This document shows positions 1 through 54,896 of a stretch of DNA of 64,000 nt, piece after piece. The notes under the pieces are model-generated. The model worked only from the letters and a program-made list of their open reading frames with translations. It was not told the DNA's origin and made no database searches. The stretch covers positions 4,397,418 through 4,461,417 of the forward strand of contig CAWHJR010000002.1 in the NCBI GenBank assembly GCA_963829805.1, written 5' to 3'. Within the stretch, counting starts at the first letter, position 1, and every line of letters starts with the position of its first letter. The position numbers and the translations under genes were made by a program. This DNA is from Euzebyaceae bacterium (GTDB lineage Bacteria > Actinomycetota > Nitriliruptoria > Euzebyales > Egibacteraceae).

Positions 1-860
1 TGCGCGGCCACGCCGAACGCGTCGCCGAGGACGTCCGCACCGCCGAGGGTCTGCCCTGGAACTGGCTGCGCGAGGCCCTGATCTCGCAACCCGAGCTCGT
101 GCGCTGGCGCCCCCAGATCGCCGCCGCGCTGCTGGAGCGCGAGCCCGGCATCGAGCTGGACCTGCCCGACGACCCCAGCGAGCGCTGGCTGGCTGAGGCT
201 GCCCGCGCCCGCGACGCCGGCCCCGTCCCGCCCGGGATCGACGCGTTGCTCGGCAAGCACGCGGACCGGTTGCCCGCGACCCTGCCGACGCTGCAGATGG
301 CCCAGGAGCAGTACCCGGAGCGCGTCCCCGCCCTGCTGGAGCGCGTGGACCTCGAGGCGCCGAACTTCCTGGCGATCCTCGCGTGGGCGCGCGACCACGG
401 CCACACCGGCCAGCTGCGCGACCGGGTGCAGGCCGACGTCGAGGCCGCCGCCGCCGACAACCGCGCTCAGGGCCTCGCGCGCTGGCGGTCCTGGATCGAC
501 CGCGGGGTCAAGGTCACGCTGCCGGAGGCCGTGAAGACGCACTCGCTGGAGGGGCTGGACCTCGGCCGCCCGGAGACCGCCGACCTCGTGGCCCAGCTCG
601 TCGCCGAGGGCGTCGAGCTGGCGCCCCAGGACGTCCTCGACCAGACCGCCCAGGGCAACCGCATGCTCGGCGAGAAGGCCTACGAGGCGTTCATCTGCGC
701 CGGGCTGGACGTCCACCTGCCGCTGGTGCTGGAGGGCAACCCGATGGTGCCGACCGGCACGCGCTGCCCCGCCTGCCAGGCCTGGACGTGGGTGCGGCCC
801 GGGCACGAGTCCCGCTGCCCGCGCCTCACGGAGCTGGCCGGGTCCGCCGTCGGCGCGTGA
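1..860 (+). CDS. hypothetical protein, 5' end upstream of window
   Basis: Forward frame 3 is open from base 3 to the TGA at 858-860; track ORF 99..860 is its tail. Third codon positions are almost all G/C. No family recognised. Cys cluster CPACQ...RCP near the C-terminus. Confidence 0.5.
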   Translation, partial: RGHAERVAEDVRTAEGLPWNWLREALISQPELVRWRPQIAAALLEREPGIELDLPDDPSERWLAEAARARDAGPVPPGIDALLGKHADRLPATLPTLQMAQEQYPERVPALLERVDLEAPNFLAILAWARDHGHTGQLRDRVQADVEAAAADNRAQGLARWRSWIDRGVKVTLPEAVKTHSLEGLDLGRPETADLVAQLVAEGVELAPQDVLDQTAQGNRMLGEKAYEAFICAGLDVHLPLVLEGNPMVPTGTRCPACQAWTWVRPGHESRCPRLTELAGSAVGA

Positions 861-2971
861 TCCAGCCCCAGCCCGGGGCTGCGACCTTCCCCCGCCGCCA
901 GGCGGTCACACGGCACTTCAGCCTGGGCCTGCCGCGGTCGTTCACGCCAACCCCCCAGCGGGTGTTGTTCCTGCGGTCGCTGGGTCCGGAGGACCCCGTC
1001 CTGTGCCTGTGGGCGCTGGAACGCGACAGCGGGCTGGAACGCCTGCTGGTCGACCCTCGCGAGGTGGACCCCGACGGCGACGGCGCGCTGCCGCCCGAGG
1101 AGCGCGCCCGGCGCGAGCGCGTGCGCGAGCACGGCGGCGGGATCGTTGCCTACGCCGCCGACGCGGCGGGCACGGTCGTGGCCTTCACGCTCGGCGGACG
1201 GCTGCTCGTCGCCGACGCCACGACCGGAACCACCGTGCAGCCCGCGGTCGAAGGCCCGATCGTCGATCCGCGACCCGACCCGACCGGCTCTCGGATCGCG
1301 TTCGTGCGCGACGGTGGGCTCTGGGTCGACCCGGGGCCGGCCGGCACCACGCGCCGACTGCTGCACGACGACGACCCCGACGTGACGTGGGGCCTCGCCG
1401 AGTTCGTCGCCGCCGAGGAGATGGACCGCACGCGCGGCTATTGGTGGTCCCCGGACGGTCAGCGCCTGGTCGCCGCGCGCGTCGACGTCTCCCCGGTTGC
1501 AACGTGGTGGATCGCCTCGCCGGTGGACCCGCACGTCGCCCCCGTCGCGACGCGCTACCCGGCCGCGGGCACCGCCAACGCGCACGTCTCGCTGGCGGTG
1601 GTCGACCTCGACGGGGCGACGACGCCGATCACCTGGGACCGCGAGGCGCTGCCCTACCTCGTCGACGTGAGCTGGGAGGCCGGCTGCCCGCTGGCGCTGC
1701 AGGTGCTGTCGCGCGACCAGCGCAGGGCCGCCGTGTTGACGGCCGACCCCGACACCGGCACGACCCGGGAGATCTGGGCCGACGAGGACCCCGTCTGGGT
1801 GGAGCCCTCCCCAGGCAGCCCGGCCTTCCTGCCCGGCACCGGCGCGCTGGCGGAGGGTGCGCGGATGGTGCACGTCGTGGTGGCCGACGACCGCCGTCGC
1901 GTCGCGGTGGACGGGCGGATCGTGTCCTCCGCGGCCCTGCACGTGCGCGCGCTCCTGGGTCTGGAGGGGGAGGCCGCGATCGTGCACGCCTCCGCCGAGG
2001 ACCCCATCGCCGATGCGGTCTGGCGCATCCCGCTGGACGGTGGGGAGCCCGAGGCGCTCACCGACCTCGACGGCATCGCCGACGGGATGGCCCAGGCCGG
2101 CACCGTGGTCACGATCGAGCGCTCGCTGCGCAGCGACAACCCTGTGGTGACGGTCCACGGTGTCGGCCGCGTCGCGGCGTCACCGGCGGCCCTGGGCCTG
2201 GACGTGCGGGTCGAGCACGCGGTCATCCACGGCGTGCGCACCGCGCTGGTGCTGCCGCTGGCGTGGACGCCGGAGGACGGGCCGCTGCCGGTGCTCGTGG
2301 ATCCCTATGGCGGACCCCACGGGCAGCGGGTCGCCAAGTCCCGCCGCGCGTACGCCGAGCCGCAGTGGTTCGCCGAGCAGGGCTATGCCGTGGTCGTCGC
2401 CGACGGCCGCGGCACGCCCGGGATCGGGCTGCGCTGGGAGCAGGCGGTGCACCGCGACCTCGCGGGACCGGTGCTGGACGACCAGGTGGCCGCCCTGGAG
2501 GGTGCCGCGGCGCGCTGGCCGGGTGCGCTCGACCTCGAACGCGTCGCGATCCGTGGATGGTCCTTCGGGGGCTACGTCGCCGGGCTGGCCGTCCTCGACC
2601 GGCCCGACCGCTTCCACGCCGCGATCGTGGGCGCGCCCGTGACCGACTGGCGGCTCTACGACACCCACTACACCGAGCGCTACCTGGGCGATCCGAGCGT
2701 CGACCCCGGGCCGTACGAGCGCGGCTCGCTGATCGCCCGAGCACCCGCGCTGGTGCGGCCGATGCTGCTGATCCATGGGCTGGCCGACGACAACGTCGTG
2801 GCCGCGCACACGCTGCGCCTGTCGCGCGCGCTGCTGGAGGCCGGCCGGGTGCACCGCGTGCTGCCGCTGTCGGGGGTCACGCACATGACGCCCCAGGAAG
2901 CGGTGGCCGAGAACCTCCTGCACCTGCAGTGCGACTTCCTCGCCCAGGCGCTTGCACCCTTGGGCTCATGA
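857..2971 (+). CDS. S9 family serine peptidase (dipeptidyl-peptidase IV / prolyl oligopeptidase type)
   Basis: Tail of track ORF 383..2971. GTG 857 overlaps the upstream stop (GTGA). Propeller-like N-terminal part, then a catalytic domain with GWSFGGY (Ser), GLADDNV (Asp) and GVTHM (His). The track N-terminal extension is Arg/Pro-rich off-frame read-through. Confidence 0.85.
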   Translation: MIQPQPGAATFPRRQAVTRHFSLGLPRSFTPTPQRVLFLRSLGPEDPVLCLWALERDSGLERLLVDPREVDPDGDGALPPEERARRERVREHGGGIVAYAADAAGTVVAFTLGGRLLVADATTGTTVQPAVEGPIVDPRPDPTGSRIAFVRDGGLWVDPGPAGTTRRLLHDDDPDVTWGLAEFVAAEEMDRTRGYWWSPDGQRLVAARVDVSPVATWWIASPVDPHVAPVATRYPAAGTANAHVSLAVVDLDGATTPITWDREALPYLVDVSWEAGCPLALQVLSRDQRRAAVLTADPDTGTTREIWADEDPVWVEPSPGSPAFLPGTGALAEGARMVHVVVADDRRRVAVDGRIVSSAALHVRALLGLEGEAAIVHASAEDPIADAVWRIPLDGGEPEALTDLDGIADGMAQAGTVVTIERSLRSDNPVVTVHGVGRVAASPAALGLDVRVEHAVIHGVRTALVLPLAWTPEDGPLPVLVDPYGGPHGQRVAKSRRAYAEPQWFAEQGYAVVVADGRGTPGIGLRWEQAVHRDLAGPVLDDQVAALEGAAARWPGALDLERVAIRGWSFGGYVAGLAVLDRPDRFHAAIVGAPVTDWRLYDTHYTERYLGDPSVDPGPYERGSLIARAPALVRPMLLIHGLADDNVVAAHTLRLSRALLEAGRVHRVLPLSGVTHMTPQEAVAENLLHLQCDFLAQALAPLGS

Positions 2972-4110
2972 AGCACCACGATGTGATCGTCCTCGGCCTG
3001 GGCGGAATGGGCAGCGCGGCGGCCGCGCACCTGGCCGAGCGCGGGCAGTCCGTCCTCGGGCTCGAACAGTTCCGGCGGGCGCACGACCTGGGCTCGTCGC
3101 ACGGCGGCTCGCGCATCATCCGCCAGGCGTACTTCGAGGGCGCCGACTACGTGCCGCTGCTGCTGCGCGCCTACGAGCTGTGGGACCGCCTCACCGCGTT
3201 CCACGGCAAGGTCCTGCGCCTGAGGACCGGCGCGCTCTACGTCGGGCCGCCGGGTTCGGACCTCGTGCTGGGGACGGTGGCCTCCGGCCGTGCCTACGAC
3301 CTGCCGGTCGAGGAGCTCGAGCCTGCGGAGGTCCGCACCCGCTTCCCGACCTTCGCGCTGCTCTCCGACGACCACATCGCCGCCTACGAGGCCGCGGCCG
3401 GCATCGTCTTCCCGGAGCTGAGCGTCACCACCCACTGCGTTGTCGCGGAGCGCCACGGGGCCACCCTGCACTTCGACGAGCCGGTGCTGGGCTGGGAGCC
3501 CAAGGGCGAGGGCGTCACGGTCACCACGGCGCGCGGCACGTACACGGCCGACCGCCTCGTGGTCACCGCCGGCGTCTGGGCCGGCAAGCTGCTGGCCGGG
3601 TTGGGGCTGCCGCTGCAGCCGGAGCGCGTCGTGCAGTTCTGGTTCGTGCCCGAGGATCGCCGCCCGTTCCTCGCCGACCGCCATCCGGTCTGGCTCTGGG
3701 AGACCGACGAGGGCAAGCGCCCCTACGGCTTCCCGATCTTCGACGGGTCTCCGAAGGCCACGAAGGTGGCGTTCTTCCGCGAGACCACTCCGGCGGACCC
3801 GCGCCGCGTCGACCGCGTCGTGCGCGACGCGGAGGTCGAGCAGATGCGCACGGCCTTGGCTCCGCGCCTGCCAGGCATCGCGGCGGGCGCGCTGCAGGAC
3901 GCCAAGGTCTGCCTGTACACGACCACCCCGGACGAGCACTTCGTGATCGGCCTGCACCCCGAGCTCCCGCAGGTCGCGATCGGCGCCGGCTTCTCGGGCC
4001 ACGGGTTCAAGTTCGTCCCGGTGGTCGGGGAGATCCTCGCCGACCTTGTGATCGACGGCGCCACGCCGCACCCGATCGAGCTGTTCGACCCGACGCGCTT
4101 CGGGGCCTGA
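2968..4110 (+). CDS. solA: monomeric sarcosine oxidase / N-methyl-L-tryptophan oxidase family FAD enzyme
   Basis: Tail of track ORF 1003..4110 from ATG 2968 (ATGA overlap with the peptidase stop). Starts MKHHDVIVLGLGGMGSAAA (Rossmann fold). GFSGHGFKF motif near the C-terminus is typical of the MSOX/MTOX family. Confidence 0.8.
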   Translation: MKHHDVIVLGLGGMGSAAAAHLAERGQSVLGLEQFRRAHDLGSSHGGSRIIRQAYFEGADYVPLLLRAYELWDRLTAFHGKVLRLRTGALYVGPPGSDLVLGTVASGRAYDLPVEELEPAEVRTRFPTFALLSDDHIAAYEAAAGIVFPELSVTTHCVVAERHGATLHFDEPVLGWEPKGEGVTVTTARGTYTADRLVVTAGVWAGKLLAGLGLPLQPERVVQFWFVPEDRRPFLADRHPVWLWETDEGKRPYGFPIFDGSPKATKVAFFRETTPADPRRVDRVVRDAEVEQMRTALAPRLPGIAAGALQDAKVCLYTTTPDEHFVIGLHPELPQVAIGAGFSGHGFKFVPVVGEILADLVIDGATPHPIELFDPTRFGA

Positions 4111-4457
4111 CGGCAGGCGTCCCGGGTCCCGCGGCGAATCCCAGGTCCTGCGCATCCGGTTCCTGGCAGTGGTCGTGGTCCTGGGCATCGTGGCTGCGCC
4201 GACGGCGGGGGCGGGGGCCGCGGGCCCGGGCGAGGAGTCTCCGGACGTAGGCATGGCCGGCACCTGCAAGGGGGCGGCTGCTACCGCATGGGGATGTTCC
4301 GCGCCACCGCGGACTCGCTGATGCACACCGTGGGCCTGGCGGACGGCGGCAACCCGTTCAACCTCCCCGGCCCGCGACGTCCGCTGGCTGGCCGACGGCG
4401 AGGAGCTCGTTGCGGCTCGCGATCCGACCGGCATGCTGGCGACATGGGCCCACGGAC

Positions 4458-5218
4458 GTGACGGCCACCGGGGTCGACGGGCGCGGCCTGGCGTCCCTGC
4501 GCGGCTGGAACCTCGGCCTCACGCTGCTGCACCTCGGACAGGCGGTGGCGGTGCTTGTGCTGGCGACGGACTTCGCCGTAACCGTGACCCGGTCGCTGCC
4601 CACCGGTCCTCCGGGCACACCGCCTGGCCCGCCGGAAGCGATGTTCGATCTCCCGATCGGCCCGGCCGTCGCGGTCTTCCTTGTGCTCGCGGCGCTTGAC
4701 CACCTGCTCACCGCGACGGCCTTCCGACGCACCTACGACGCCGACCTCCGTGTCGGGATCAACCGATTCCGATGGGTGGAGTACTCCTTCAGCGCAACGC
4801 TCATGGTGGTGCTGATCGCGCTGTACACCGGCATCGACGGGATCTCGGCGCTCATCGGCATCGCCGGCGCCAACGTGGCCATGATCCTGTTCGGCTGGCT
4901 TCAGGAGTCCGCCAACCCGCCGGGCGGGCAACCGTCACCATGAAGCCGTTCTGGTTCGGCTGCATCGCGGGCGTCGCGCCGTGGGTGGCGATTGGCTACA
5001 ACGTGGTCGCCGCCGAGGAGGTCCCAGGCTTCGTCGTCGGCATCTATGTGTCGCTGTTCCTGTTCTTCAGTAGTTTTGCGCTCAACCAATGGCTGCAGTA
5101 CCGCGAGGTCGGGCGGTGGCGCAGCTACGCGTTCGGCGAGCAGGCGTACCTGGTGCTCAGCCTTGTGGCGAAGTCGGCTCTCGCCTGGCAGATCTTCGCC
5201 GGGTCGTTGGTCTCGTAG
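4458..5218 (+). pseudogene. heliorhodopsin, interrupted by one apparent 1-nt frameshift near 4920-4940
   Basis: ORF 4410..4943 carries ...NRFRWVEYSFSATLMVVLIAL...ILFGWLQE. ORF 4772..5218, in another frame, continues KPFWFGCIAGVAPW...FFSSFALNQWLQY...YLVLSLVAKSALAWQIFAGSL. The two parts are colinear with heliorhodopsin 48C12 as I recall it. The counterion Glu (RWVEYS) and Schiff-base Lys (SLVAKSALAWQ) are both present. Start is GTG 4458, with TTG 4410 as the alternative. Confidence 0.8.
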
Positions 5219-5301
5219 ACCTGGGGTCGTGCAGTGGCGCGGGTCGCGAACGCGCTCCCGTCAGCTTTCTGATTGAGCACCTCCCGCCCCGCCAGTGCAG
5301 G

Positions 5302-5721
5302 ATGGGAGCGATGTACCGCGACGACCGCTGCGCCGTGTGCGGGGAGGCGCTGCCGCCGGACCACTTCTACTGCGCGACGCACGGGGCGGACGTGGACGAG
5401 CGGCTGCGGGCCTTGGGGGGCGCGCTGGGACGCCTGGTCGGGGAGCTCGGTGAGGCCGCCGCGCTGGCGCCGGGGATCGCGCAGGCGACGTGGGACTGGC
5501 TGGCCGGGGACGAGGACTGGCCGCCGGTCGCCGACGTCGAGCTGCTCGCCGACGCCGACGACGTGACGGTCGACGTCGCCGACCCGGGCACGGTCAAGGT
5601 GCGCGTGCGTGTCCCGCTGCCCGACCTGCTGACCGCGCTGCACGCGGCCCTGTCGCGCGACGACATCCACGGGCTCGGCAGCGTGCTCGTGTCCGCCGAG
5701 GGCGCCGATGCCACCCACTGA
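5302..5721 (+). CDS. hypothetical protein with N-terminal CxxC...C..H zinc-ribbon-like motif
   Basis: Tail of track ORF 5089..5721. ATG 5302 or 5311 (MYRDDRCAVCGEALPPDHFYCATHG). High GC3. The stop overlaps the pepF start by 14 nt. Confidence 0.55.
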   Translation: MGAMYRDDRCAVCGEALPPDHFYCATHGADVDERLRALGGALGRLVGELGEAAALAPGIAQATWDWLAGDEDWPPVADVELLADADDVTVDVADPGTVKVRVRVPLPDLLTALHAALSRDDIHGLGSVLVSAEGADATH

Positions 5722-7504
5722 GACCGAGACGCTCACCGCCGCCGAGGCCCCTACGTGGGATCTCGGCGACCTCTACACCGGCCCCGACGACGCGGCGCTG
5801 GAACGCGACCTCACCCAGCCGGTCGCCGACGCGCACGCCTACGAGGCGCGCTACCGGGGCCGGGTCGCGGAGCTCGACGCCGCGCAGCTGGCGCAGGCCG
5901 TCGCGGAGCAGGAGACCCTGCTCACGCCGCTGTACCGCGCGGGCGCCTACGCCAGCCTGCGCTTCGCGACCGACACCGCCGATCCCGGCCGCCGCGCGCT
6001 CTCCGGCCGGGCCCAGGAGCAGGGGGCGGTGGTGCGGTCACACCTGCTGTTCTTCGACCTCGAGTGGCTGGCCGTCGACGACGACCGCGCCGCCGCGCTG
6101 CTGGCCGACCCGGCGCTGGCCCCCTACCGCCACCACCTCCAGGGCGAGCGACGCTACAAGCCCCACACGCTGACCGAGCCCGAGGAGCAGGTCCTCACCA
6201 AGCTGTCACCGACTGGGCCGTCTGCCTGGCAGCGCCTCTTCACCACGCTGTCGAGCACGATCACGGTCGACCTGCCGGCCGGGGAGACCTCACTCACCGA
6301 GGCGCTCTCCGAGCTCCACGCGGCCGACCGCGAGGCCCGCGACACCGCGGCCGACGCGATCAGCGCCGCGCTGGAGCGCGATCTCGACGTGCGCGGACAA
6401 GTCTTCGACACCCTGCTGCACGACAAGGCGCTGCGCGACGACCTGCGCTCCTACCCGCACTGGATCGCCACGCGCAACCTCGCCAACGAGGCCTCCGACG
6501 AGCAGGTCGAGGCCCTCGTGCAGGCGGTCGTGCGGCGCTACGACCTCGTCGGCCGGTGGTACCGCCTCAAGGGGCGCCTGCTGGGCATCGACGACCTCGC
6601 TGACCACGACCGCTACGCGCCGCTCCCGGGCATGCCCGAGCACGTGGTCACGTGGCGCGAGGGCCGCGACCTCGTCCTCGACGCCTACGCAGACTTCTCG
6701 CCGCGCCTGGCCGACCTCGCGCGGGAGTACTACGACCGCGGGTGGATCGACGCCGCGCTCGCCCCGGCCAAGCGCTCCGGGGCGTTCTGCGCAGCGACCG
6801 TCCCGTCCGCGCACCCGTACGTGTTCGTCAACTGGACCGGCACCGCCCGCGACGTCATGACCGTCGCGCACGAGCTGGGCCACGGCGTCCACATGCGGCT
6901 GTCGCAGGAGCAGACCCTCTTCAACACGTCGACGCCGCTGACCACCGCCGAGACGGCGTCGATCTTCGGCGAGGCGGTCACGTTCCAGCGCCTCGCGCAG
7001 CAGGCCCCCGACGCCCGCGCGCGCCTCGCGCTCCTCGCCCACCGCATCGACCAGGCGATCGCCACGATCTTCCGCCAGGTCGCCATGAACCGCTACGAGG
7101 ACGCGGTGCACACCAGCCGCCGTGAGGGCGGCCAGCTGTCCGTCGACCGTCTCGGCGAGCTCTGGCTGGAGACCCAGGCCCCGATGTTCGACGGCGCCCT
7201 TGAGCTGCGTTCGCGCTACCGCAGCTGGTGGAGCTACGTCCCTCACTTCTTCTCCACGCCCGGCTACGTCTACGCCTACGCGTTCGGCAACCTGCTGTCG
7301 TTCGCGCTGCTGCGCCGCTGGGAGGACGACCCCGACGAGTTCATCACCGCCTACCTGGCGATGCTCTCCCGCGGGGGCTCGGCGTCCCCCCAGGACCTGG
7401 TGACCCCGCTGGGCGTCGACCTCTCCGACCCCGGCTTCTGGGACGCCGGCCTGGACGTCTTCGAGGGCCTCGTCGCCGAGGCCGAGGCCCTGGCCGAGCT
7501 GTAA
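5708..7504 (+). CDS. pepF: M3B family oligoendopeptidase F
   Basis: 598 aa with the HELGHGVH zinc motif and overall PepF-like layout. Confidence 0.88.
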   Translation: MPPTETETLTAAEAPTWDLGDLYTGPDDAALERDLTQPVADAHAYEARYRGRVAELDAAQLAQAVAEQETLLTPLYRAGAYASLRFATDTADPGRRALSGRAQEQGAVVRSHLLFFDLEWLAVDDDRAAALLADPALAPYRHHLQGERRYKPHTLTEPEEQVLTKLSPTGPSAWQRLFTTLSSTITVDLPAGETSLTEALSELHAADREARDTAADAISAALERDLDVRGQVFDTLLHDKALRDDLRSYPHWIATRNLANEASDEQVEALVQAVVRRYDLVGRWYRLKGRLLGIDDLADHDRYAPLPGMPEHVVTWREGRDLVLDAYADFSPRLADLAREYYDRGWIDAALAPAKRSGAFCAATVPSAHPYVFVNWTGTARDVMTVAHELGHGVHMRLSQEQTLFNTSTPLTTAETASIFGEAVTFQRLAQQAPDARARLALLAHRIDQAIATIFRQVAMNRYEDAVHTSRREGGQLSVDRLGELWLETQAPMFDGALELRSRYRSWWSYVPHFFSTPGYVYAYAFGNLLSFALLRRWEDDPDEFITAYLAMLSRGGSASPQDLVTPLGVDLSDPGFWDAGLDVFEGLVAEAEALAEL

Positions 7505-7525
7505 CGGCGCGCGTCAAGTAGGCCA

Positions 7526-8344
7526 TCACGACGAGCCGCGCGCCCAGCTCGCGAGGGCGCGGAGGGCCACGGCGGCACCGTCGTCGTCGACGGCGGGGAC
7601 CACCAGGTGGGCCGCCGCGCGGAGCGAGGCCGCGGCCTGGCCCATCGCGATCGCGGTGCCCGCGACCGCCAGCATCGACGCGTCGTTGTCGGCGTCGCCA
7701 AGGGCCGCCACCGCTTCCATGGGGACGCCCAGCAGGTCGGCCGCGTGGCGCAGCGCGACGCCCTTGTCGGCGTCGGGGCTGGTGACGTTGATGAGCGCGG
7801 CGCCGGGCATCGGCGGCCACACGGCCGGCCCGGGCGTCAGCCCGCGCTCCTCGAGCCCGCTGACGAGGAAGTCGCGCTCCGCGTCCCCGAACCCGACCAC
7901 CGTGCCCTTGATGATCGGCTGCGCGTCGAGGTCGACGTCGTCCGCGGTGCCCAGCGGCCAGCCCGTCACGACCTCCCAGTGCAGCCGGTAGCGCTCGTCC
8001 AGCCGCGTGACCCAGAACCCGTCGTCGACGTACAGCTCGGCGTAGAGGTCGTGCTCGCGACAGAACGCCAGCAGCGCGTGGCGCTCCGCCTCCGACAGCG
8101 GCCACGTGGCCAGCGCGCGGCCGTTGGACCGCAGCTGCGCGCCGTTGAGCACGATGTTCGGGCCGTCCAGGCCCAGCTGCTGCGCGACCCTGGCCACACC
8201 CGAGGGCAGCCGCCCGCTGGCCAGGGCCACGTGGATCCCGGCAGCCCGGGCGTCCCGGACCGCGGCCGCGACCACGGCCGTGGCCTCCAGCGCGTGGCTG
8301 AGCAGCGTCCCGTCGACGTCGAGCACGACGTAGCGCGCCGGCAC
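7526..8344 (-). CDS. Cof-type HAD-IIB family hydrolase
   Basis: Tail of track ORF 7526..8644. GTG 8344 gives VPARYVVLDVDGTLL (DxDGT motif I). Later GDADNDASML (motif IV). A longer start at GTG 8416 is possible. Confidence 0.8.
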   Translation of the reverse strand: MPARYVVLDVDGTLLSHALEATAVVAAAVRDARAAGIHVALASGRLPSGVARVAQQLGLDGPNIVLNGAQLRSNGRALATWPLSEAERHALLAFCREHDLYAELYVDDGFWVTRLDERYRLHWEVVTGWPLGTADDVDLDAQPIIKGTVVGFGDAERDFLVSGLEERGLTPGPAVWPPMPGAALINVTSPDADKGVALRHAADLLGVPMEAVAALGDADNDASMLAVAGTAIAMGQAAASLRAAAHLVVPAVDDDGAAVALRALASWARGSS

Positions 8345-8462
8345 CCGTGACCACGCGTCGAACCGGCCGCCGGGCAGGATGCCGTCGGGAAGCAGCCCAC
8401 CGTCAGGAAGCCTCACGCGGCCGGACTGTAGCCGCGGCCCCCGGACCCCTACCGTGGTGGGC

Positions 8463-8918
8463 ATGGAGCTCACGCAGCGCATCACGGCCGACCTCACCAC
8501 GGCGATGAAGGCCCGCGACGCCGAGACCACCGGCACGCTGCGCCTGGTCCTGGCCGCGATCAAGAACCTCAAGGTCGCCGAGGGCCGCGGCGGCGCCGAC
8601 CCGACCGACGCAGAGGTCACCGACCTGTTGAACCGCCAGGCCAAGCAGCGCCGCGAGTCCGCCGAGGTCTACCGCGCCGCCGACCGCCCCGAGCTCGCCG
8701 ACAAGGAGGACCGTGAGCTGGAGATCCTCCAGCGCTACCTCCCCCAGCAGCTGTCCGAGGACGAGGTCCGCACGATCGTCACCGAGGCGGTCGCCGAGAC
8801 CGGCGCCACAGGCCCCGGCGACCTCGGCCGCGTGATGAGCGCGGTGATGCCGAAGGTGAAGGGCCTCGCCGACGGCAAGCTCGTCAACCAGCTGGTGAGG
8901 GAAGCTCTGGCGGGCTGA
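8463..8918 (+). CDS. GatB/YqeY domain-containing protein
   Basis: From ATG 8463: MELTQRITADLTTAMKARD...LRLVLAAIKN...EILQRYLPQQLSEDE...GRVMSAVMPKVKGLADGKLVNQLV, the typical YqeY family pattern. Confidence 0.85.
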   Translation: MELTQRITADLTTAMKARDAETTGTLRLVLAAIKNLKVAEGRGGADPTDAEVTDLLNRQAKQRRESAEVYRAADRPELADKEDRELEILQRYLPQQLSEDEVRTIVTEAVAETGATGPGDLGRVMSAVMPKVKGLADGKLVNQLVREALAG

Positions 8919-8919
8919 G

Positions 8920-9771
8920 TCAGTCGCGGGGTCGGTCGCGGAGGTAGCGCTCGAAGGCGGCGGCGAGCTCCTCGCCGGAGACCATCTGGGAGGAGAGGGT
9001 GTCGTCGCGGTCGGTGCGGTCCTCCAGCTCGGTGACGTAGCTGGCGAGGTCGTCGTCCTCGGTGACGAGGCGGGCGATGTCCTCCTGCTGGTGCTCGGCG
9101 GCGTCCGCGAGGCCGTCCAGGGGGATGTCCAGGCCGGTGCCGCGGCACGCCATCGCGGCGAGGTCGTGGGAGGCCTGGAGGTAGGCGGTGCCCGCCAGGT
9201 AGTGGGGGACGCCGACCCACAGCGTGAGCGTCTCCAGGCCGGCCTCGGCGCAGCTGAGGGTCACCACGCCGGTGATCCCGGTGGGGCCCTCGTAGCGGCT
9301 CTGGGTCAGGCCCAGGTCCTCGGCCAGCGACGCCGGGTGCGACCAGCCGGTCAGCGCCAGCGGGCGCGTGTGCGGTTGATCGACCTGCAGCGCGCCCAGC
9401 GTCACCACGCGCCGCACGCCGGTCTGCTGGGCGACGTCGACGACGTGGCGAGCGAACGAGCGCCAGCGCAGGTTGGGCTCGCTGGACTCCAGCAGGATCA
9501 CGTCGCCGCCGTTCGTGGTGGCCCAGCGGAACCGCGGCTTGGGCCAGATGATGCGGCGGCGCTCCCCGTGGCCGCGGATCGTCGGGCGGCTGACCTGGAA
9601 GTCGAGGAACGACTCGGGGTCGAGGGTCGCGAGCGTGCGCGGCTCGAGGGACTCCGCCAGCGCGTCCAGCGCGCCCGAGGCGGCCTCCCCCGCATCGCTC
9701 CAGCCCTGGAATGCCGCGATCAGCACCGGTGACCTGAGAGCCGGCCGTTCACCGACCCAGTCGAGCTCCAT
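8920..9771 (-). CDS. PAC2 (proteasome assembly chaperone-like) family protein
   Basis: MELDWVGERPALRSPVLIAAFQGWSDAGEAAS... N-terminus and size are typical of actinobacterial PAC2 family proteins. Confidence 0.75.
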   Translation of the reverse strand: MELDWVGERPALRSPVLIAAFQGWSDAGEAASGALDALAESLEPRTLATLDPESFLDFQVSRPTIRGHGERRRIIWPKPRFRWATTNGGDVILLESSEPNLRWRSFARHVVDVAQQTGVRRVVTLGALQVDQPHTRPLALTGWSHPASLAEDLGLTQSRYEGPTGITGVVTLSCAEAGLETLTLWVGVPHYLAGTAYLQASHDLAAMACRGTGLDIPLDGLADAAEHQQEDIARLVTEDDDLASYVTELEDRTDRDDTLSSQMVSGEELAAAFERYLRDRPRD

Positions 9772-9811
9772 CGTGGTCCCTTCCCGCGTGCGAGGACGAT
9801 TCTCGCACGCG

Positions 9812-10525
9812 TCAACGCTCGTGGCGGCGCAGGAAGTCCACGAGTGCCGGCGTCACCACCCTGCCTCGGTTGATCTGGCAGTCGTGCCCCCCGGCGGGGA
9901 CCACAAACTCCTCCGACTGCGGCCAGACGCGGCGCAGATCCGCGTACTGCCCGGGTTCCACGACGGTGTCGCGGTCGCCGCGCACGAGCAGCACGGGGCA
10001 CGTCAGGCCCGCGAGCGCGTCCAGCGGCACGTCGACCGCCACGCCGCCCGAGTCGCGCCAGGCGACGTCGCGCCAGGCGTCCGGGCCGCCCAGCGCCGTG
10101 TGGATGCGCGACAGGGAACGCACCCACAGCGGGTACTCGGCGGCCAGCACGTCGGGCTCGAACTTCGCGCGCCACGCGGTCAGGCCCGGGTGGTCGCGGT
10201 AGCTCACCCCGATGAGCACGAGCGCGCCGAACAGCTCGGGTCGTCGCGCGGCCAGAGCCATCGCGGTGTGCCCGCCCATCGAGAACCCCATGACGGTGAC
10301 GGGGTCGGCGAACTGCTCGAGGTAGCGCTCGACCGCGGCGACCAGCACCGCGCGCGAGAGCTCCCCCTCCAGCGGCGTCCCGCCGTGGCCCGGGAGGTCG
10401 GGCAGGTGCACGCGGTGGTCCTCCGCGAACGCCTTGACCTGCTGCGACCAGTGGTACCGCCCCGTGCCGATCCCGCCGTGCAGCAGCACGAGGTCGCGCC
10501 CCTCGCCCACCACCTCCGCATGCAT
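9812..10525 (-). CDS. alpha/beta hydrolase
   Basis: LVLLHGGIG...LPGHGGT...GFSMGGH nucleophile elbow; 237 aa. Confidence 0.8.
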   Translation of the reverse strand: MHAEVVGEGRDLVLLHGGIGTGRYHWSQQVKAFAEDHRVHLPDLPGHGGTPLEGELSRAVLVAAVERYLEQFADPVTVMGFSMGGHTAMALAARRPELFGALVLIGVSYRDHPGLTAWRAKFEPDVLAAEYPLWVRSLSRIHTALGGPDAWRDVAWRDSGGVAVDVPLDALAGLTCPVLLVRGDRDTVVEPGQYADLRRVWPQSEEFVVPAGGHDCQINRGRVVTPALVDFLRRHER

Positions 10526-10553
10526 CGGCCGAGGCTATGTCACGCTGGCGCGC

Positions 10554-11711
10554 GTGCTGCCAGCGACCGCCGACGCCGTCGTGGTCGGCGCCGGCATCGC
10601 CGGGGCCGCCTGTGCGTGCTTCCTGCGCCGCGCCGGGCTGGCACCGCTGGTGCTGGAGGCGCTGCCGGTCGCGGCGGGCCTCACGACCGGCGCGGCGACC
10701 GGCGCGTTCCGCCTGCAGCGCGACAGCGCTGAGGACTTGACGCTGGCGCGCGAGTCGCTGGCCTGGCTGGAGCGCTTCGAGGACCTGACCGGCCAGGCCG
10801 AGCACCAGCCGCGCCTGCAGCCCCAGGGCTACCTGTGGGTCACCACCGAGCCCGCGCGCGCCGCCGAGCAGCAGGAGCTCGTGGGGGCGCAGCGCTGCTG
10901 GGGCGTCGACGGCGTGGAGCTGCTCGAGGGCCAGGCCGCGCAGGCGCGCTTCCCCTTCCTCGCGCCCGAGGTCCTGCAGGCGCGCTACCGCGCCGGCGAC
11001 GGCTTCCTCGACCCGCGCGAGGTCGTGCTCGGCCTGCTCGCCGGCACCCGGGTCGTCACCGACTGCCGGGTCACCGGGATCGAGGTCGACGGCGCCGGCG
11101 CCGCGGGCGTGCGCACGCCGAACGGGTCGGTCGCCACGCGCACGGTGGTCGTCGCCACGGGACCGTTCGCGGGTGCCGTCGCCGCGCTGGCCGGCGTGAG
11201 CCTGCCGCTGCAGCACGTCGCGCGGCACAAGGTGGTCGTGCCGGTCGCCCCCGAGATCCCGGCGGGCGCGCCGATGGTGATCGACGACGACACAGGCACC
11301 CACTGGCGACCGGCGCTGGCGGGAGCGGTCGCGCTCCACCTCGACGAGCAGGCACCGCCCGGCGACCCGGCGGAGGACGTCCCCGGGGACCGCCGCCTCG
11401 CCTGGCGGATCCTCGACCCGGCCAGCCCGATCGCGGCGGCCCGCACCGTTCCGCTGTGGCGGGAGGTCTGGACGCGCCGGCGGCCGTGGATGCAGCAGTC
11501 CGGGCAGTACACAACCGCGCCCGACGGGCGGCCGCTGCTGGGCGCGACCGCGGTACCCGGGCTGTGGGTCAGCGCGGGCTGGGGCGGGCACGGCGTCATG
11601 GACGGCCCGGCGGGCGGGCGCATCCTGGCCGACCTGGTCACCGGAGCGCTGGACGCCTCGCCGTACCCGGTTGACCGCCGGTTCGGGGCGCGCCTCGTGG
11701 GCCGGATCTGA
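10554..11711 (+). CDS. FAD-dependent oxidoreductase (DAO family)
   Basis: Tail of track ORF 10434..11711. GTG 10554 gives VLPATADAVVVGAGIAGAACA (dinucleotide-binding fold). Ends ...GWGGHGVMDGPAGG. Confidence 0.78.
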   Translation: MLPATADAVVVGAGIAGAACACFLRRAGLAPLVLEALPVAAGLTTGAATGAFRLQRDSAEDLTLARESLAWLERFEDLTGQAEHQPRLQPQGYLWVTTEPARAAEQQELVGAQRCWGVDGVELLEGQAAQARFPFLAPEVLQARYRAGDGFLDPREVVLGLLAGTRVVTDCRVTGIEVDGAGAAGVRTPNGSVATRTVVVATGPFAGAVAALAGVSLPLQHVARHKVVVPVAPEIPAGAPMVIDDDTGTHWRPALAGAVALHLDEQAPPGDPAEDVPGDRRLAWRILDPASPIAAARTVPLWREVWTRRRPWMQQSGQYTTAPDGRPLLGATAVPGLWVSAGWGGHGVMDGPAGGRILADLVTGALDASPYPVDRRFGARLVGRI

Positions 11712-11716
11712 GCGCG

Positions 11717-13141
11717 ATGGCACACCGCCTCGTCGCAGGAGTGGACTGCTCCACACAGGCCACCAAGGTCCTGCTCGTCGACGCCGCCACCGGCGCGGTC
11801 GTCGCCACGGGCCGAGCGCCCCACGAGGTGCACGGCTCCGACGGCGCCCGCGAGACGCACCCGCGGGTCTGGGAGCACGCGCTCAGGGACGCGCTCGCCT
11901 CGACGGGGCGGGCCGGGGATGTCGCAGCGATCGCGATCGGCGGGCAGCAGCACGGCCTGGTCGTACGCGACCGCGCGGGCGAACCCCTGCGCCCCGCCCT
12001 GCTCTGGAACGACGTGCGCAGCGCGCCGGACGCCGCCGCACTGGTCGAGGCCCTCGGCGCGGACGCCTGGGCCGAGCGCACGGGCAGCGTCCCGGTCGCG
12101 TCCTACACCGTGAGCAAGTGGGCCTGGCTGCGGCGTACCGAACCCGCGACGGCGGCGGCCACCGCCAGCGTGCGCCTGCCCCATGACCACCTCACCGAAC
12201 TGCTCTGCGGCGAGGCCGTCACCGACCGCGGCGACACCTCCGGCACATGCTGGTGGTCACCGGCGACCGGCGCCTACGACGACGCGATCCTGGGCCTGCA
12301 GGCCGTGCGGCTGGACCCGGCACTGCTGCCCAGGGTGCTCGGGCCGCGCGAGGCCGCAGGTCCCGTCACGTCCCTGGCCGAGAAGGCGTTCGGCCTCCCG
12401 AAGGGCGCGGTGGTCGCGCCCGGCACCGGGGACAACATGGCGGCCGCGCTGGGCCTGGGCCTGGGCCCCGGCACCCCCGTGCTGAGCCTGGGCACCTCCG
12501 GGGTGGTCTCCGCGGTGTCCCAGCGCCGCATCGCCGACCCCACCGGGATCGTGGCCGGGTTCGCCGACGCCACCGGGCGCTTCCTCCCGCTGGCCTGCAC
12601 GCTCAACTGCACGCTGGCTGTCGACCGCATCGCCGCCTGGCTGCACCTGGGCCGCGACGCCGTCACCCCCTCGACCGAGGTCGTCGTGCTGCCCTACCTG
12701 GACGGCGAGCGCACCCCGAACCTCCCCGACGCCACCGGCACGATCGTCGGCCTGCGCCACGACACCGAGCCGGGCGCGATCCTGCGCGCCGCCTACGAGG
12801 GCGCCGTCGCCTCGCTGCTGCAGGCGCTGGACCTGGTGGCCCAGCACTCCGGTGGCCTGCCCGACGACGCGCCACTCGTGCTCATCGGCGGCGGCGCAAA
12901 GGGCGCGGCGTGGCGCGACGTCGCCGGCGCGCTCTCCGGCCGCGCGCTGCAGGTCCCCGACGCCGAGGAGCTGGTCGCGATCGGCGCTGCCGTCCAGGCT
13001 GCCGCGGTCCTCGACGGCGAGGACCCGGTCGCGGTGGCCCGGCGCTGGAACACCCGCGCCGGCACCACCCTCGACCCCCGCCCGCGCGACGACGCCGCGC
13101 TGGCGCGCATCGCGAGGCTGCAGGAGATGCTGCCCCGCTAG
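11717..13141 (+). CDS. xylB: xylulokinase (FGGY family)
   Basis: MAHRLVAGVDCSTQATKVLLVD...IAIGGQQHGLVVRD...PALLWNDVRS...LPHDHLTELL matches actinobacterial XylB as I recall it. Confidence 0.85.
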   Translation: MAHRLVAGVDCSTQATKVLLVDAATGAVVATGRAPHEVHGSDGARETHPRVWEHALRDALASTGRAGDVAAIAIGGQQHGLVVRDRAGEPLRPALLWNDVRSAPDAAALVEALGADAWAERTGSVPVASYTVSKWAWLRRTEPATAAATASVRLPHDHLTELLCGEAVTDRGDTSGTCWWSPATGAYDDAILGLQAVRLDPALLPRVLGPREAAGPVTSLAEKAFGLPKGAVVAPGTGDNMAAALGLGLGPGTPVLSLGTSGVVSAVSQRRIADPTGIVAGFADATGRFLPLACTLNCTLAVDRIAAWLHLGRDAVTPSTEVVVLPYLDGERTPNLPDATGTIVGLRHDTEPGAILRAAYEGAVASLLQALDLVAQHSGGLPDDAPLVLIGGGAKGAAWRDVAGALSGRALQVPDAEELVAIGAAVQAAAVLDGEDPVAVARRWNTRAGTTLDPRPRDDAALARIARLQEMLPR

Positions 13142-13159
13142 AGCTCAGGCCGAGCGCCG

Positions 13160-13915
13160 TCAGTGCGTGGCCGTGTCGTGATGCTCGATCTCGACCGCGT
13201 GGCCGACGCCCAGGTAGCGCCTCTGCAGCTCGGGGTCCGCGAGGAGGGCGGACGCGGTGGTCTCGGCCTGGATGCGGCCGGTGACCATCACGAGCTGGCG
13301 CTCGCCGATCATCGTGGCCGCCCGCAGGTTCTGCTCGACCACGAGCACGGCGACCCCCTCGTCGACCAGGCGGTGGATCGCGTCGACCAGGGTGTCGACG
13401 ATCGTGGGGGCGAGGCCCTCCGACGGCTCGTCCATGAGCACCAGGGAACCGTTGAGCAGGAGCGCGCGCCCGACCGCCAGCATCTGCTGCTCGCCGCCGG
13501 ACAGCTGCGCGCCGCCGTTGCCGCGCCGGTCGGCGAGGCGCGGGAAGAGCTCGTAGACGGCGTCGGGCGTCCAGCGCTTGCCGCGCGTGCCCTTGGCCAG
13601 CATCCGCAGGTGCTCATCGACCGTCAGCGACGGGAAGAGCCGGCGGCCCTGCGGGACGTAGGAGATGCCCGCGCGCGCGATCGCCTCGGGCTGCTTCTTC
13701 GCCAGGTCGACGCCGTGGAACGAGATGGCGCCGCTGGTGGGGCGCACCAGGCCCATCAGCGTCGCGCACAGGGTGGTCTTGCCCATGCCGTTGCGGCCGA
13801 TGATGCAGACGGCCTCGACGCCCATCGAGAACGACACACCGTCGAGCACCTGCGACGCGCCGTACCCGGCGGTCAGGCCGGTGACCTCGAGGATCGGCTT
13901 GGCGTCCTCGGCCAT
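13160..13915 (-). CDS. ABC transporter ATP-binding protein, LivF-like
   Basis: From ATG 13915: MAEDAKPILEVTGLTAGYG...GRNGMGKTT (Walker A)...LSGGEQQML (signature)...LVLMDEPSEGL (Walker B). One-nt overlap with the upstream stop (TGATG). Confidence 0.9.
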   Translation of the reverse strand: MAEDAKPILEVTGLTAGYGASQVLDGVSFSMGVEAVCIIGRNGMGKTTLCATLMGLVRPTSGAISFHGVDLAKKQPEAIARAGISYVPQGRRLFPSLTVDEHLRMLAKGTRGKRWTPDAVYELFPRLADRRGNGGAQLSGGEQQMLAVGRALLLNGSLVLMDEPSEGLAPTIVDTLVDAIHRLVDEGVAVLVVEQNLRAATMIGERQLVMVTGRIQAETTASALLADPELQRRYLGVGHAVEIEHHDTATH

Positions 13916-14691
13916 CAGGCTGCCTCGCTGCCCAGGTAGATCTCGTGGACCTTCTCGTCGGCGCGGATCTCCTCTGGCGTGCCTGCCGCGACCGGGCGAC
14001 CGTCGGCCATCACGAAGACGCGCTCCCCCACCCGGAACGCGACGTCCATGTCGTGCTCGATCATCAGCAGGGTCTTGTCCGCGCCCAGCTCGTGCAGCAG
14101 CTCGATGAGACGCTCGCGCTCGCCGCGCGACAGGCCGGAGGCCGGCTCGTCCAGCAGCAGGATGTCGGGTTCGGTCACCACCGCCATCCCCAGCTCGAGC
14201 TGGCGCTTCTGCCCGTGGGAGAGGTCCGCGACGAGCGTGCCGAAGTGCTCGTGCAGCCAGACGGAGCGGGCGGCCTCGGCCGCGAGCTCGCGCCACGCGC
14301 GGTCGGTGGCGCCCAGCCGCAGGCGGCGGCCGCGCTTGCCCGCGACCGCCAGGTAGAGGTTGTCCTCCACGGTCAGCCCGGCGAACGAGCGCGCCTTCTG
14401 ATACGTGCGCGCCACGCCCATCCCGGGCCGCGTGCGTGACGGCTGACGGGTGACGTCCACGCCCTTGATCGTGACGCTGCCGACCGTGGGTTCCAGGTCG
14501 CCCGCGATCACGTTGAACAGCGTGGTCTTCCCGGCCCCGTTGGGGCCCAGGACGACCAGGCGGTCGCCTTGGGCGACATCGAGGTCGATGCCGCCCAAGG
14601 CGACCAGGCCGCCGAACCGCACGACGATGCCGCGCGCCTGCAGCACGAGGTCGCGCTGCGGCGGGGGCGTGACGGCGGGTTCGGCGGTCAT
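13915..14691 (-). CDS. ABC transporter ATP-binding protein, LivG-like
   Basis: From ATG 14691: MTAEPAV...GPNGAGKTTLFN...LSHGQKRQLE...LLLLDEPASGL. The rest of track ORF 13915..15321 is off-frame. Confidence 0.9.
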   Translation of the reverse strand: MTAEPAVTPPPQRDLVLQARGIVVRFGGLVALGGIDLDVAQGDRLVVLGPNGAGKTTLFNVIAGDLEPTVGSVTIKGVDVTRQPSRTRPGMGVARTYQKARSFAGLTVEDNLYLAVAGKRGRRLRLGATDRAWRELAAEAARSVWLHEHFGTLVADLSHGQKRQLELGMAVVTEPDILLLDEPASGLSRGERERLIELLHELGADKTLLMIEHDMDVAFRVGERVFVMADGRPVAAGTPEEIRADEKVHEIYLGSEAA

Positions 14692-14710
14692 GGTGTCGTC
14701 CTCGTCCCGG

Positions 14711-16320
14711 CTAGGTCTGCGGGACGCCGTCGACGACGGGGATCGCGTTGCCGTGCCACGGCAGCTCGGCCGTCGTGCACTCCGGGAAGTCGTGGCCCGG
14801 CGGCGGGGTGTCCTCGGTGAACACGCCACCGAACGACTGGTCCACCTCGGGGATGATGTAACGGGTCGTCTGCACGATCTCGCCGCTCTCGTCGTCCAGC
14901 ACGAGCTGCGCGACGAACGTGTCGACGATGCCGGAGCGGTTCTCGTCCAGCGTGATCTCGCCGTAGGGCAGGTCGAGCGTGAGCCCGGCCAGCGCCGGCT
15001 GCAGGACCTCCGGGCTGGCGTCGCCTCCGGTCTCCTCCAGGGCCTGCACGAGTGCGGTGGCCGCGGAGTAGTACCCGTAGAAGAACCCGAAGCCGGCGGC
15101 CACGGACGGCGGGCCGGCCTCGCCGCTGGCCAGGCCGCTGGGGAGGGTCTCCCACGCGGCGTCGGCGGACTCCAGGTACTCGGTGATCTCCGGGGTGACG
15201 ACGTCACCCGGCAGCGTCGCGAAGCCGCCGACGTAGGCGCCGTCGATGCCGGTTCCCAGGGCCTGCGCCAGGCCCGGGTTGAAGAAGAGGTTTCCGGCGT
15301 GCTGGGCGCCGGTGAGGTCACCCTTGGCGTTCACGAACGCCTCGAGCGCGGCCTGCGTGCCGGTGCCGCCGACGACCCAGAAGTAGCCGTCCACCTCGTC
15401 GGGGTCGGGCAGCTGGTCGATGAACGACGAGTAGTCGGTGGTGCCCAGCGGCGGGAAGACGCGGGAGACCACGTCACCGCCTGCGCCGCAGAAGTCGGCG
15501 ACGAAGCCGGCTGCCGAGGTCAGGCCGAAGCTGTAGTCGTCCGCGATCACCGCGGCGGTGTCCCAGCCGGCCTCGTTGTGGAGGATGTCGCCGATCCCGG
15601 CGTTCCAGACCGCGCCCTCGCCGTGGAAGCGGAAGTAGTTCGGGGCCTGGACCTCGAGGGTGGACTCCTGCGAGCCGGCGATGCCGGACAGGACCGTGAG
15701 CTGCGGGTTGTCGCGGGCGTACTCGGCGACCGCGATGGCCTCGTCGCCCGAGAGCGGGCCGATGATGATCTCGGCGCCGTCCTGCTCGACCAGCGTGCGG
15801 ATCTCGGTCAGGATCGTGTCGGCGGTGTCGTCACCGCAGCCGATGCCGACCAGCTCGATGGCCGTGCCGGCCACCTCTGCTCCCTCGAAGCCGTCCAGCG
15901 CACTGGTGGTCGAGACCGATGTCGCGCCTGCGTGGTTGATGAACCCGAGCGTTGCGCCGCCGACGGTGTCCTCGTGGAAGCCGCCGAAGGCGCCCTCGCA
16001 CTCGCCGAGGATCCCGAGCTGGATGACGCCGTCGTCGCCGCCGCCGGCCGCCGCGTCGGAGGCCGGGGCCTCGGTCGGGCATCGGTGGCGGCATCGGTGG
16101 CGGCATCGGTGGCGGCATCGGTGGCGGCATCGGTGGCGGCCTCGGTGGCTGCATCTGTCGCGGCATCGGTGGCAGCCTCGGTGGCGGCCTCGGTGGCGCC
16201 GGCCGCCTCGGTCTCGGTCGCGTCCTCGGTGTCGCCGCCGCCGCACGCGGCGGCGATCAGGCCCAGGACGGCGACCAGGCAGAGCCGCAGCCAGGTGGAT
16301 CGCGTGTGGATGGTCCTCAC
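14711..16320 (-). pseudogene. ABC transporter substrate-binding lipoprotein (Liv/Peripla_BP_6 type), apparent 1-nt frameshift at 16074-16078
   Basis: GTG 16320 (GTGA overlap with the permease stop) opens VRTIHTRSTWLRLCLVAVLGLIAAAC (signal peptide plus lipobox), followed by (ATDA/ATEA)n. The mature domain (GVIQLGILGECEG...) is in the frame of track ORF 14711..16246. The join needs one extra C in a CCC run. Confidence 0.8.
16079..16198 (-). repeat. 12-bp tandem repeat, 10 units (first 5 identical: gcatcggtggcg), encoding the (A-T-D/E-A)n linker of the lipoprotein
   Basis: Read directly: units at 16079, 16091, 16103, 16115 and 16127 are identical. Five further units carry 1-3 substitutions each. 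Confidence 0.9.
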
Positions 16321-17378
16321 TGAGTTGTTCCCTTCGTTTCCGTTGCGGGCGAAGGCTCGCCCGCGTCGATCCTGCGTTCTGACAGCGGGGTGGCGGCCCG
16401 TGACCGGCGCAGCCTGTTGCCGATCCCGGCCAGCCCGTCGGGGGACAAGACCATGATCAGCAGCACGAGCACCCCGATGAGGGTGTTGAAGCGGTCCGCG
16501 GTGAGGCCGATGCGGTCGATGAGCGGCAGGTCGCGGATGTAGAACTCCGCGACGACGTAGACCAGCGCTCCCACCCACGCGCCGGCGAACGACGAGATGC
16601 CGCCGATCACCGCGATGATGAGGAAGACGATCGCCGGCCCGATGCCGATCGTGTTCGGGGTGATCTGGCCGTTGGACCAGACGAACAGCAGACCGGCGAC
16701 CGCGGCCACGAACGCCCCTAGCGTGAAGGCCACCATGCGGTGCACCGCCACGTTGAAGCCGAGGGAGGCCATGCGCACCGGGTCGTCGCGCACGCCCTGG
16801 AGCGCCAGGCCGAAGTTCGTGCCCCGGATCGCGACGAAGGCGGCGTAGACCACCGCCGAGACCGCGAGCGCCCCGTAGTAGACCCGCAGCGGGGTCGCGA
16901 AGAGCGCGGGCGGGGTGATGCTGGTGATCCCGCTCTGGCCGGACAGGTCGATGATGTTGAAGAAGACCTGGAAGCCGATCACCGCGTAGACCAGGGTCAG
17001 CATCAGGAAGTAGATGCCGGTGGCGCGGCTGGCGACGGCGCCCAGCACCAGGCCCAGCAGGGTCGCGATGGCCAGCGCGAAGAGGACCGAGACCCACGGG
17101 CTCCAGCCGAGGTTCAGCCCGCGCGCCCCGGTCGAGCTGACCGCGTTGCCGTACATGAACCCCGCGACCCCGTAGAACAGGATCTGCCCCAGGGAGGTCA
17201 TCCCGCCGTACCGCGCGAGCATCACGATCGTGGCCGCGACGATGCCGAAGATCAGCGCTCGCGACAGCACCCGCAGGATGAAGAAGTCCAGTGCGTCCGG
17301 CCCGAACGGGAGCAGCGCGAGGACCACGACGACGACCGCCGGGATCCCGACCCGCAGGGCGCGCGCGCTGCCGGTCAC
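16317..17378 (-). CDS. branched-chain-type ABC transporter permease, LivM-like
   Basis: GTG 17378 (GTGA overlap with the upstream stop). Hydrophobic multi-TM protein ...MTSLGQILFYGVAGFMYG.... Confidence 0.85.
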   Translation of the reverse strand: MTGSARALRVGIPAVVVVVLALLPFGPDALDFFILRVLSRALIFGIVAATIVMLARYGGMTSLGQILFYGVAGFMYGNAVSSTGARGLNLGWSPWVSVLFALAIATLLGLVLGAVASRATGIYFLMLTLVYAVIGFQVFFNIIDLSGQSGITSITPPALFATPLRVYYGALAVSAVVYAAFVAIRGTNFGLALQGVRDDPVRMASLGFNVAVHRMVAFTLGAFVAAVAGLLFVWSNGQITPNTIGIGPAIVFLIIAVIGGISSFAGAWVGALVYVVAEFYIRDLPLIDRIGLTADRFNTLIGVLVLLIMVLSPDGLAGIGNRLRRSRAATPLSERRIDAGEPSPATETKGTTQ

Positions 17379-20603: not shown

Positions 20604-20702
20604 GTCGTGCCTCGCTCCTGATCCCTGATCGTCCCGCGGGGCCCGCCGGTCGGGGGGCCGGGTGGTGCTCGTGCTTCTCGTACGCCTGTTGGACGGGCGC
20701 CT

Positions 20703-54655: not shown

Positions 54656-54896
54656 ATGGACGACGTGAACCGGGTGACGGACAGCCGAGGCCACCCAGGT
54701 CGCGTACGGGCTCTTCCTGCTGGTCGGCCCGAACGAGGCGGCCGAGCACCTCATCGCCATCTACGGGTGGGACCGCGCCTTTCAGACGTTGAACGCGATG
54801 ACCGACGACGAGGCCGCCGCCGCCGCGTGGGCGGCCGTCACCTCGCTGCGCGGCGACGACGGCGCGCGGGATCGGGGCACCGACCGCTGGCGCTGA
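54656..54896 (+). pseudogene. small hypothetical ORF with apparent +1 frame change near 54680-54700
   Basis: ATG 54656 opens MDDVNRVT. From 54678 to the TGA at 54894 a different frame shows near-perfect GC3 (...VAYGLFLLVGPNEAAEHLIAIYGWDRAFQTLNAMTDDEAAAAAWAAVTSLRGDDG...) but has no start codon of its own. Confidence 0.3.

Follow-up and report, generated by a model that had tools for sequence, protein, structure and literature searches.

An ordinary heliorhodopsin gene very probably split by a one-base consensus error in an indel-rich Euzebyaceae genome assembly

We analysed 64,000 nucleotides of contig CAWHJR010000002.1 from a Euzebyaceae bacterium assembly (GCA_963829805.1; hereafter, the window), in which a heliorhodopsin (HeR) gene is deposited as two open reading frames, and conclude with high confidence that the split is a one-base consensus error, one G having been dropped from a GGGG run, and that the gene is intact in the cells and, judged by homology, normal and functional. 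In the public record, the gene appears as one protein of 161 aa and another of 92 aa, a listing that would then be a consequence of the artefactual split. The original prediction, made from the window's sequence, had described a copy that was either freshly inactivated or merely mis-sequenced; the second option is strongly favoured by an intact GGGG in a sibling assembly and by the indel-ridden essential genes of this genome, and fresh inactivation is correspondingly disfavoured. By its sequence, the locus is a standard heliorhodopsin of an already known family, and the gene is one more ordinary representative of an actinobacterial heliorhodopsin clade that is very large and strongly conserved. 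The coordinates of the gene, its two halves and its neighbours are given in Table 1.

Table 1 The heliorhodopsin gene and its neighbours, in positions of the window
Feature	Position	Strand	Remarks
N-methyl-L-tryptophan oxidase (solA-like), FAD-dependent, intact, upstream	2968..4110	+	NF008425, 435 bits versus a cut-off of 257
Heliorhodopsin (HeR) gene	4458..5218	+	253 aa if read through the one-base gap; PF18761 positions 1-242 covered by both halves
Frame-A ORF, 161 aa, helices A-E, with H25, H82 and counterion E108	4458..4943	+	GTG at 4458; out-of-frame TGA at 4941-4943
Frame-B ORF, 92 aa, helices F-G, with S235xxxK239 Schiff-base motif	4940..5218	+	ATG at 4940; TAG at 5216-5218
CxxC (zinc-ribbon-like) protein, 136 aa, downstream	5311..5721	+	Also called in contig_15518 of the sibling assembly
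PepF / M3 oligoendopeptidase, 598 aa, full-length versus homologues	5708..7504	+	Frame-broken in the sibling assembly

Each half of the gene was recognizable as heliorhodopsin in profile searches. Against Pfam family PF18761 (Heliorhodopsin; cut-off, 26.7 bits), the frame-A product matched profile positions 1-146 (E = 3.8e-49, 167.7 bits) and the frame-B product matched positions 147-242 (E = 8.5e-43, 146.9 bits). Against NCBIfam NF038020 ('heliorhodopsin HeR'; cut-off, 100 bits), the halves scored 128 and 129 bits, each above the cut-off alone, while the intact copy from the sibling assembly scored 273 bits. Together with matches to structures of heliorhodopsin 48C12 (E = 1e-69), these scores bear out the family assignment first made from the letters alone, and the ORFs and their colinear profile matches place both halves at the predicted coordinates and in the predicted order. 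A six-frame search of the whole genome returned this single HeR locus, its two pieces meeting at profile position 147, without a second HeR copy.

Comparison with 48C12 (PDB 6SU3, 6SU4, 6UH3 and 9LJJ) aligned residues 11-252 of the read-through protein, and the match to NF038020 was likewise colinear and full length (profile positions 1-244 of 244). The two proteins share the GWLQE and PFWFGC motifs that flank the E-F loop, although this loop is two residues longer here than in 48C12, the extracellular loop that follows helix F is shorter by five residues and, unlike in 48C12, the deposited ORF is interrupted by the one-base gap. In the 6SU3 alignment, K239 (in SLVAKS, codon 5171-5173) corresponds to the Schiff-base Lys K241 and E108 (in RWVEYS, codon 4779-4781) to the counterion E107 of 48C12, which are the roles that the original prediction had given to these residues, and the His pair H25/H82 corresponds to H23/H80 of 6SU3. 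The motif S235-L-V-A-K239 coincides with S237...K241 of 6SU3 and has the SxxxK form used as a criterion by Bulzu et al. 2021 (PMC8612252).

From the gap-poor alignment over 48C12 residues 9-254, we infer seven helices in an inverted topology, with the N-terminus in the cytoplasm. Heliorhodopsins reportedly have such an inverted topology, a seconds-long photocycle and no ion pumping, as is said to have emerged from the work of Pushkarev et al. 2018, Shihoya et al. 2019 and Kovalev et al. 2020. By homology to 48C12, retinal would be bound to Lys239 of helix G, with the protonated Schiff base balanced by Glu108, and the His25/His82 pair would line a cavity on the cytoplasmic side. The expected role would then be that of a light sensor or regulator with a slow cycle, and not that of an ion pump. 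As a member of this family, the protein would also bind all-trans retinal and absorb near 550 nm. Heliorhodopsins have been described as restricted to monoderms and common in Actinobacteriota, with a sensory or regulatory role argued for them (Bulzu et al. 2021, PMC8612252), and a 2024 paper (PMC11109279) describes an ABC transporter that is modulated by light via an actinobacterial HeR.

More than 7,000 homologues of the protein were found at E <= 1e-20. The best 120 of these were 83-90% identical and 253-276 aa long, and included proteins named 'heliorhodopsin HeR' by NCBI from Nocardioides, Kribbella, Phycicoccus and Intrasporangium. For example, the HeRs of the cultured Actinomycetes Nocardioides mesophilus, N. 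sediminis, Kribbella sp. NBC_00889, Phycicoccus sp. SLBN-51 and Intrasporangium sp. were 85-87% identical over 100% of the length; like the HeR here, they are 253-258 aa long, carry the loop NPPGR(A/S)xVTMKPFWFGC and are encoded by stand-alone genes without conserved neighbours. Unlike these genera, the host here appears to belong to a much more distant actinobacterial lineage. The HeR gene is nevertheless 85-90% identical in amino acids (86-88% in DNA) to its counterparts in Nocardioides, Kribbella and Phycicoccus, whereas the adjacent PepF has its best named relative at 58% (an Egibacteraceae MAG), and a search for loci related to PepF returned distant relatives only, at 46% and 38%. HeR was present in 1 of 24 same-family genomes and in 10 of the 40 relatives searched. 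This HeR is much closer to those of Nocardioides and Kribbella than other genes of the host come to named relatives. Together with the distant PepF and the scarcity of HeR in the family, this points to a gene acquired horizontally or to a HeR clade that is exceptionally conserved.

DNA alignments located the lesion precisely, as one G missing from the G-run at 4922-4924, within the Gly codon of a Pro-Gly-Arg in the E-F loop. At this site, the window reads CCGCC-GGGCGGGC and the sibling assembly reads CCGCCGGGGCGGGC, with GGGG or GGGA in the orthologues; in the nucleotide alignment, CCGCC-GGGCGG of the window stands opposite CCGCCGGGGCGG or CCGCCGGGACGG of the orthologues. The true reading of the junction is NPPGRATVTMKPFWF, and close homologues all read ...GWLQESANPPGR(A/S)xVTMKPFWFGC... 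across it. The break had been predicted in the E-F loop, which holds, but the shift comes one codon sooner than proposed, the second G of '...NPPGG' being already out of frame. A codon-position hidden Markov model (HMM) trained on this genome called a deletion-type switch at 4930/4931. Relative to the three closest intact orthologue genes (86-88% nucleotide identity), the one-base gap was the sole internal gap, and there were no stops and no lost residues, hence no decay.

An independent assembly of the same population contains the same gene in one piece. A search with the neighbouring PepF led, through a 99%-identical PepF protein, to contig_15518 (91 kb) of the ENA assembly ERZ25039494, which is colinear with window positions 1-17534 and encodes, in order, an S9 peptidase, a DAO/solA-like protein, a heliorhodopsin of 253 aa, a 136-aa protein and PepF. 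Over the first 15 kb, the two sequences differed by about 67 mismatches (~99.5% identity) and a handful of indels. Within the 761 bp of 4458-5218, we found no mismatches and one indel, GGGG in contig_15518 versus GGG in the window. The uninterrupted ORF that is absent from the deposited sequence is thus present in an otherwise identical copy, whose single 253-aa product is identical to the read-through protein. According to the original prediction, reads with one extra base restoring a single ORF would speak against a pseudogene; such an extra G was found at the level of the assembly, in ERZ25039494.

The two assemblies also carry breaks in opposite directions. The pepF gene is intact in the window and frameshifted in contig_15518 by 3+1 extra bases (window 5731-5744), and in a gene for an ABC substrate-binding protein (SBP) at 15.1-15.8 kb (15169-15819), contig_15518 alone has five one-base indels, at places that are unbroken in the window. 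Such reciprocal private breaks are the pattern expected from random consensus errors, and different genes broken in two assemblies of one population indicate consensus noise and not biology. The assemblies differ by real-looking single-nucleotide polymorphisms (SNPs; ~0.5%) and so do not represent the same molecules. Overall, one independent intact copy was present in the collections searched, and exact-pattern scans of metagenome and genome contigs returned no match to the junction in either its GGG or its GGGG form.

Frame breaks are not peculiar to HeR in this genome, which comprises 3 contigs (4.94 Mb, 73% GC) with a marker completeness of just 62%. The essential gene rpoB (contig C2, 1404900-1412430, outside the window and accompanied by rpoC) is broken into at least 8 frame pieces. 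Three same-family relatives have rpoB intact, as one ORF of ~1240 aa (80-86% nucleotide identity); compared with these, the copy here has 17 one-base insertions and no deletions. Many of the insertions fall outside homopolymers, at variable positions or third codon positions, a pattern that looks like a consensus error in which both variants were written side by side. Likewise, rpoC is in at least 6 pieces with in-frame stops, and ilvB (acetolactate synthase large subunit; C2, 1918296-1920357) consists of two adjacent ORFs with a garbled junction.

We estimated the frequency of such breaks in two ways. In the first, we took 183 ORFs as tblastn probes from 400 kb of G022, a complete genome of the same family; 72 had a homologue, and 13 of these 72 conserved genes were frame-broken, with at least 20 breaks in 68 kb, or at least 0.29 per kb as a lower bound. 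In the second, a homology-free count, same-strand direct frame switches occurred at 0.95 per kb here versus 0.41 per kb in G022 (2.3 times denser), and the excess was made up of insertion-type switches at ~0.37 per kb and deletion-type switches at ~0.16 per kb. At these rates, the chance that a gene of 761 bp is broken by artefact is roughly 10-30%, and about a fifth of the genes are split in this way. A frame break in this genome by itself says nothing about biology.

Several features resemble consensus errors of long-read metagenomes, including the one-base error in homopolymer length, the low completeness despite only 3 contigs, the frameshifted essential genes and the different breaks in two assemblies of one population. 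In Nanopore assemblies, indels in homopolymer regions have required short-read polishing (PMC9262707). Unlike errors of the homopolymer type, however, most of those elsewhere in this assembly insert one base outside homopolymers, and the errors may therefore stem from two processes. One-base insertions dominate in the worst regions (17 of 17 in rpoB and 15 of 20 junctions), which places the HeR deletion in the rarer class, a point against a consensus error.

The strongest alternative is a genuine and very recent frameshift by which this strain really lost one G and had its HeR inactivated, the sibling population remaining intact. The deposited sequence does read GGG, the ~0.5% SNPs mark the two assemblies as distinct populations, short G-runs are natural sites of slippage and HeR is dispensable in most relatives, given its presence in 10 of 40. 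We nonetheless consider this explanation improbable. The 761 bp contain no other difference and no secondary decay, the essential rpoB and rpoC are 'broken' in the same manner, the sibling assembly has private breaks of its own, and the rate of artefactual breaks, at 10-30% per gene, exceeds any plausible rate of fresh pseudogenes by at least an order of magnitude. A pseudogene is very unlikely because of the combination of an intact sibling copy, broken essential genes and the genome-wide density of frame switches, and we infer that the base was lost in the consensus rather than in the strain.

A second group of explanations grants that the break exists in the cell and lets the gene work in spite of it. 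One is a real split gene, in which a five-helix polypeptide (A-E) and a two-helix polypeptide (F-G, with the Lys) are translated from ATGA-coupled ORFs and reassemble in the membrane. Proteolytic fragments of bacteriorhodopsin can reassemble in vitro. The cut here lies in a loop and not in a helix, and the frame-A stop (TGA, 4941-4943) overlaps the in-frame ATG of the second half (4940-4942). This ATG, however, encodes an ancestral Met (the orthologues read TVTMKPFWF, and ATGAAG is present in all of them), so that any -1 shift just upstream yields the overlap and its 'coupled' look is accidental. In addition, no other split HeR occurred among the matches listed (thousands of homologues, 253-276 aa), and the gene is unsplit in the sibling assembly. 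We therefore give a split gene very little credence. A programmed ribosomal +1 frameshift at CCG-GGC-GGG that produces full-length HeR is the least credible explanation of all. Its one point in favour is that the break falls in a G/C-rich, slippery-looking stretch, whereas in the orthologues (86-90% identity) and the sibling copy these residues come from one continuous frame and the shifted arrangement is not conserved. Even considered together, a functional split gene and a programmed frameshift are highly improbable.

The most unusual outcome would be that the G is really missing and that both ATGA-coupled ORFs are translated into a natural split HeR whose parts come together around retinal or, more modestly, that a knock-out strain lives beside intact siblings; we rate this as a long shot, on a par with the split gene and the programmed frameshift combined. 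If true, comparing such a knock-out with its intact siblings could help to find the purpose of HeR.

As originally predicted, the window contains no genes for carotenoid or retinal synthesis, and the carotenoid genes that we found lie elsewhere in the genome. A whole-genome scan, of the kind the original prediction had proposed for blh and crt genes, recovered a crtI-like desaturase and crtB adjoining each other (cluster at C2, 1911683-1915865), two lycopene-cyclase domains of the crtYc/Yd type 1.1 kb beyond crtI-crtB and, separate from this cluster, an RPE65-family carotenoid cleavage oxygenase (C2, 3572012-3573163). Blh/Brp (PF15461) was not found in a six-frame search of the genome, although the same search matched four relatives; among 10 HeR-bearing relatives, blh was present in 3 and absent, as here, from 7. 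Given a crt cluster and an RPE65-family oxygenase in a genome without blh, retinal could come from that oxygenase, as a candidate alternative source, or from the environment. A search of the genome for type-1 rhodopsins (PF01036) gave no match, a weak negative because no control genome gave a match either.

The amine oxidase (NF008425), CxxC protein and PepF that had been predicted beside HeR were all found there. None of the solA-like oxidase, the zinc-ribbon protein and PepF is indicated as a partner of HeR, because the three closest HeR orthologues have entirely different and unrelated neighbours; we therefore ruled out this candidate role, and HeR appears as a stand-alone gene without conserved neighbours. 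The 136-aa CxxC protein had no family match in profile searches, and a promoter and terminator scan of 4050-5400 returned nothing usable. In the 347-nt spacer that separates HeR from the solA-like gene (4111-4457), the GC signal at third positions flickers in a coding-like manner in two frames. Neither assembly has a gene call there, and the spacer is identical to that of contig_15518, with no indels, save for at most 2 single-base mismatches somewhere in the 4-5 kb bin.

Other irregularities were observed further along the window. The codon-position HMM revealed a 58-nt out-of-frame excursion, possibly two compensating indels, in an ORF of the xylA region (20653-20710), and a frame switch at the 5' end of a CapA-domain gene (54684-54885), both of which are probably further consensus indels. 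An SBP lipoprotein gene (ABC substrate-binding) on the minus strand, 11 kb from HeR, has a deletion-type break in a C-run at 16074-16081; it is similar in character to the HeR break and lies in a low-complexity linker of tandem (A/E)ATDA that directly follows the lipobox. Past window position 16000, the two assemblies diverge abruptly, with 71 indels and 183 mismatches per kb, which points to a linker that is hypervariable, to a change of strain or to one assembly being mis-joined.
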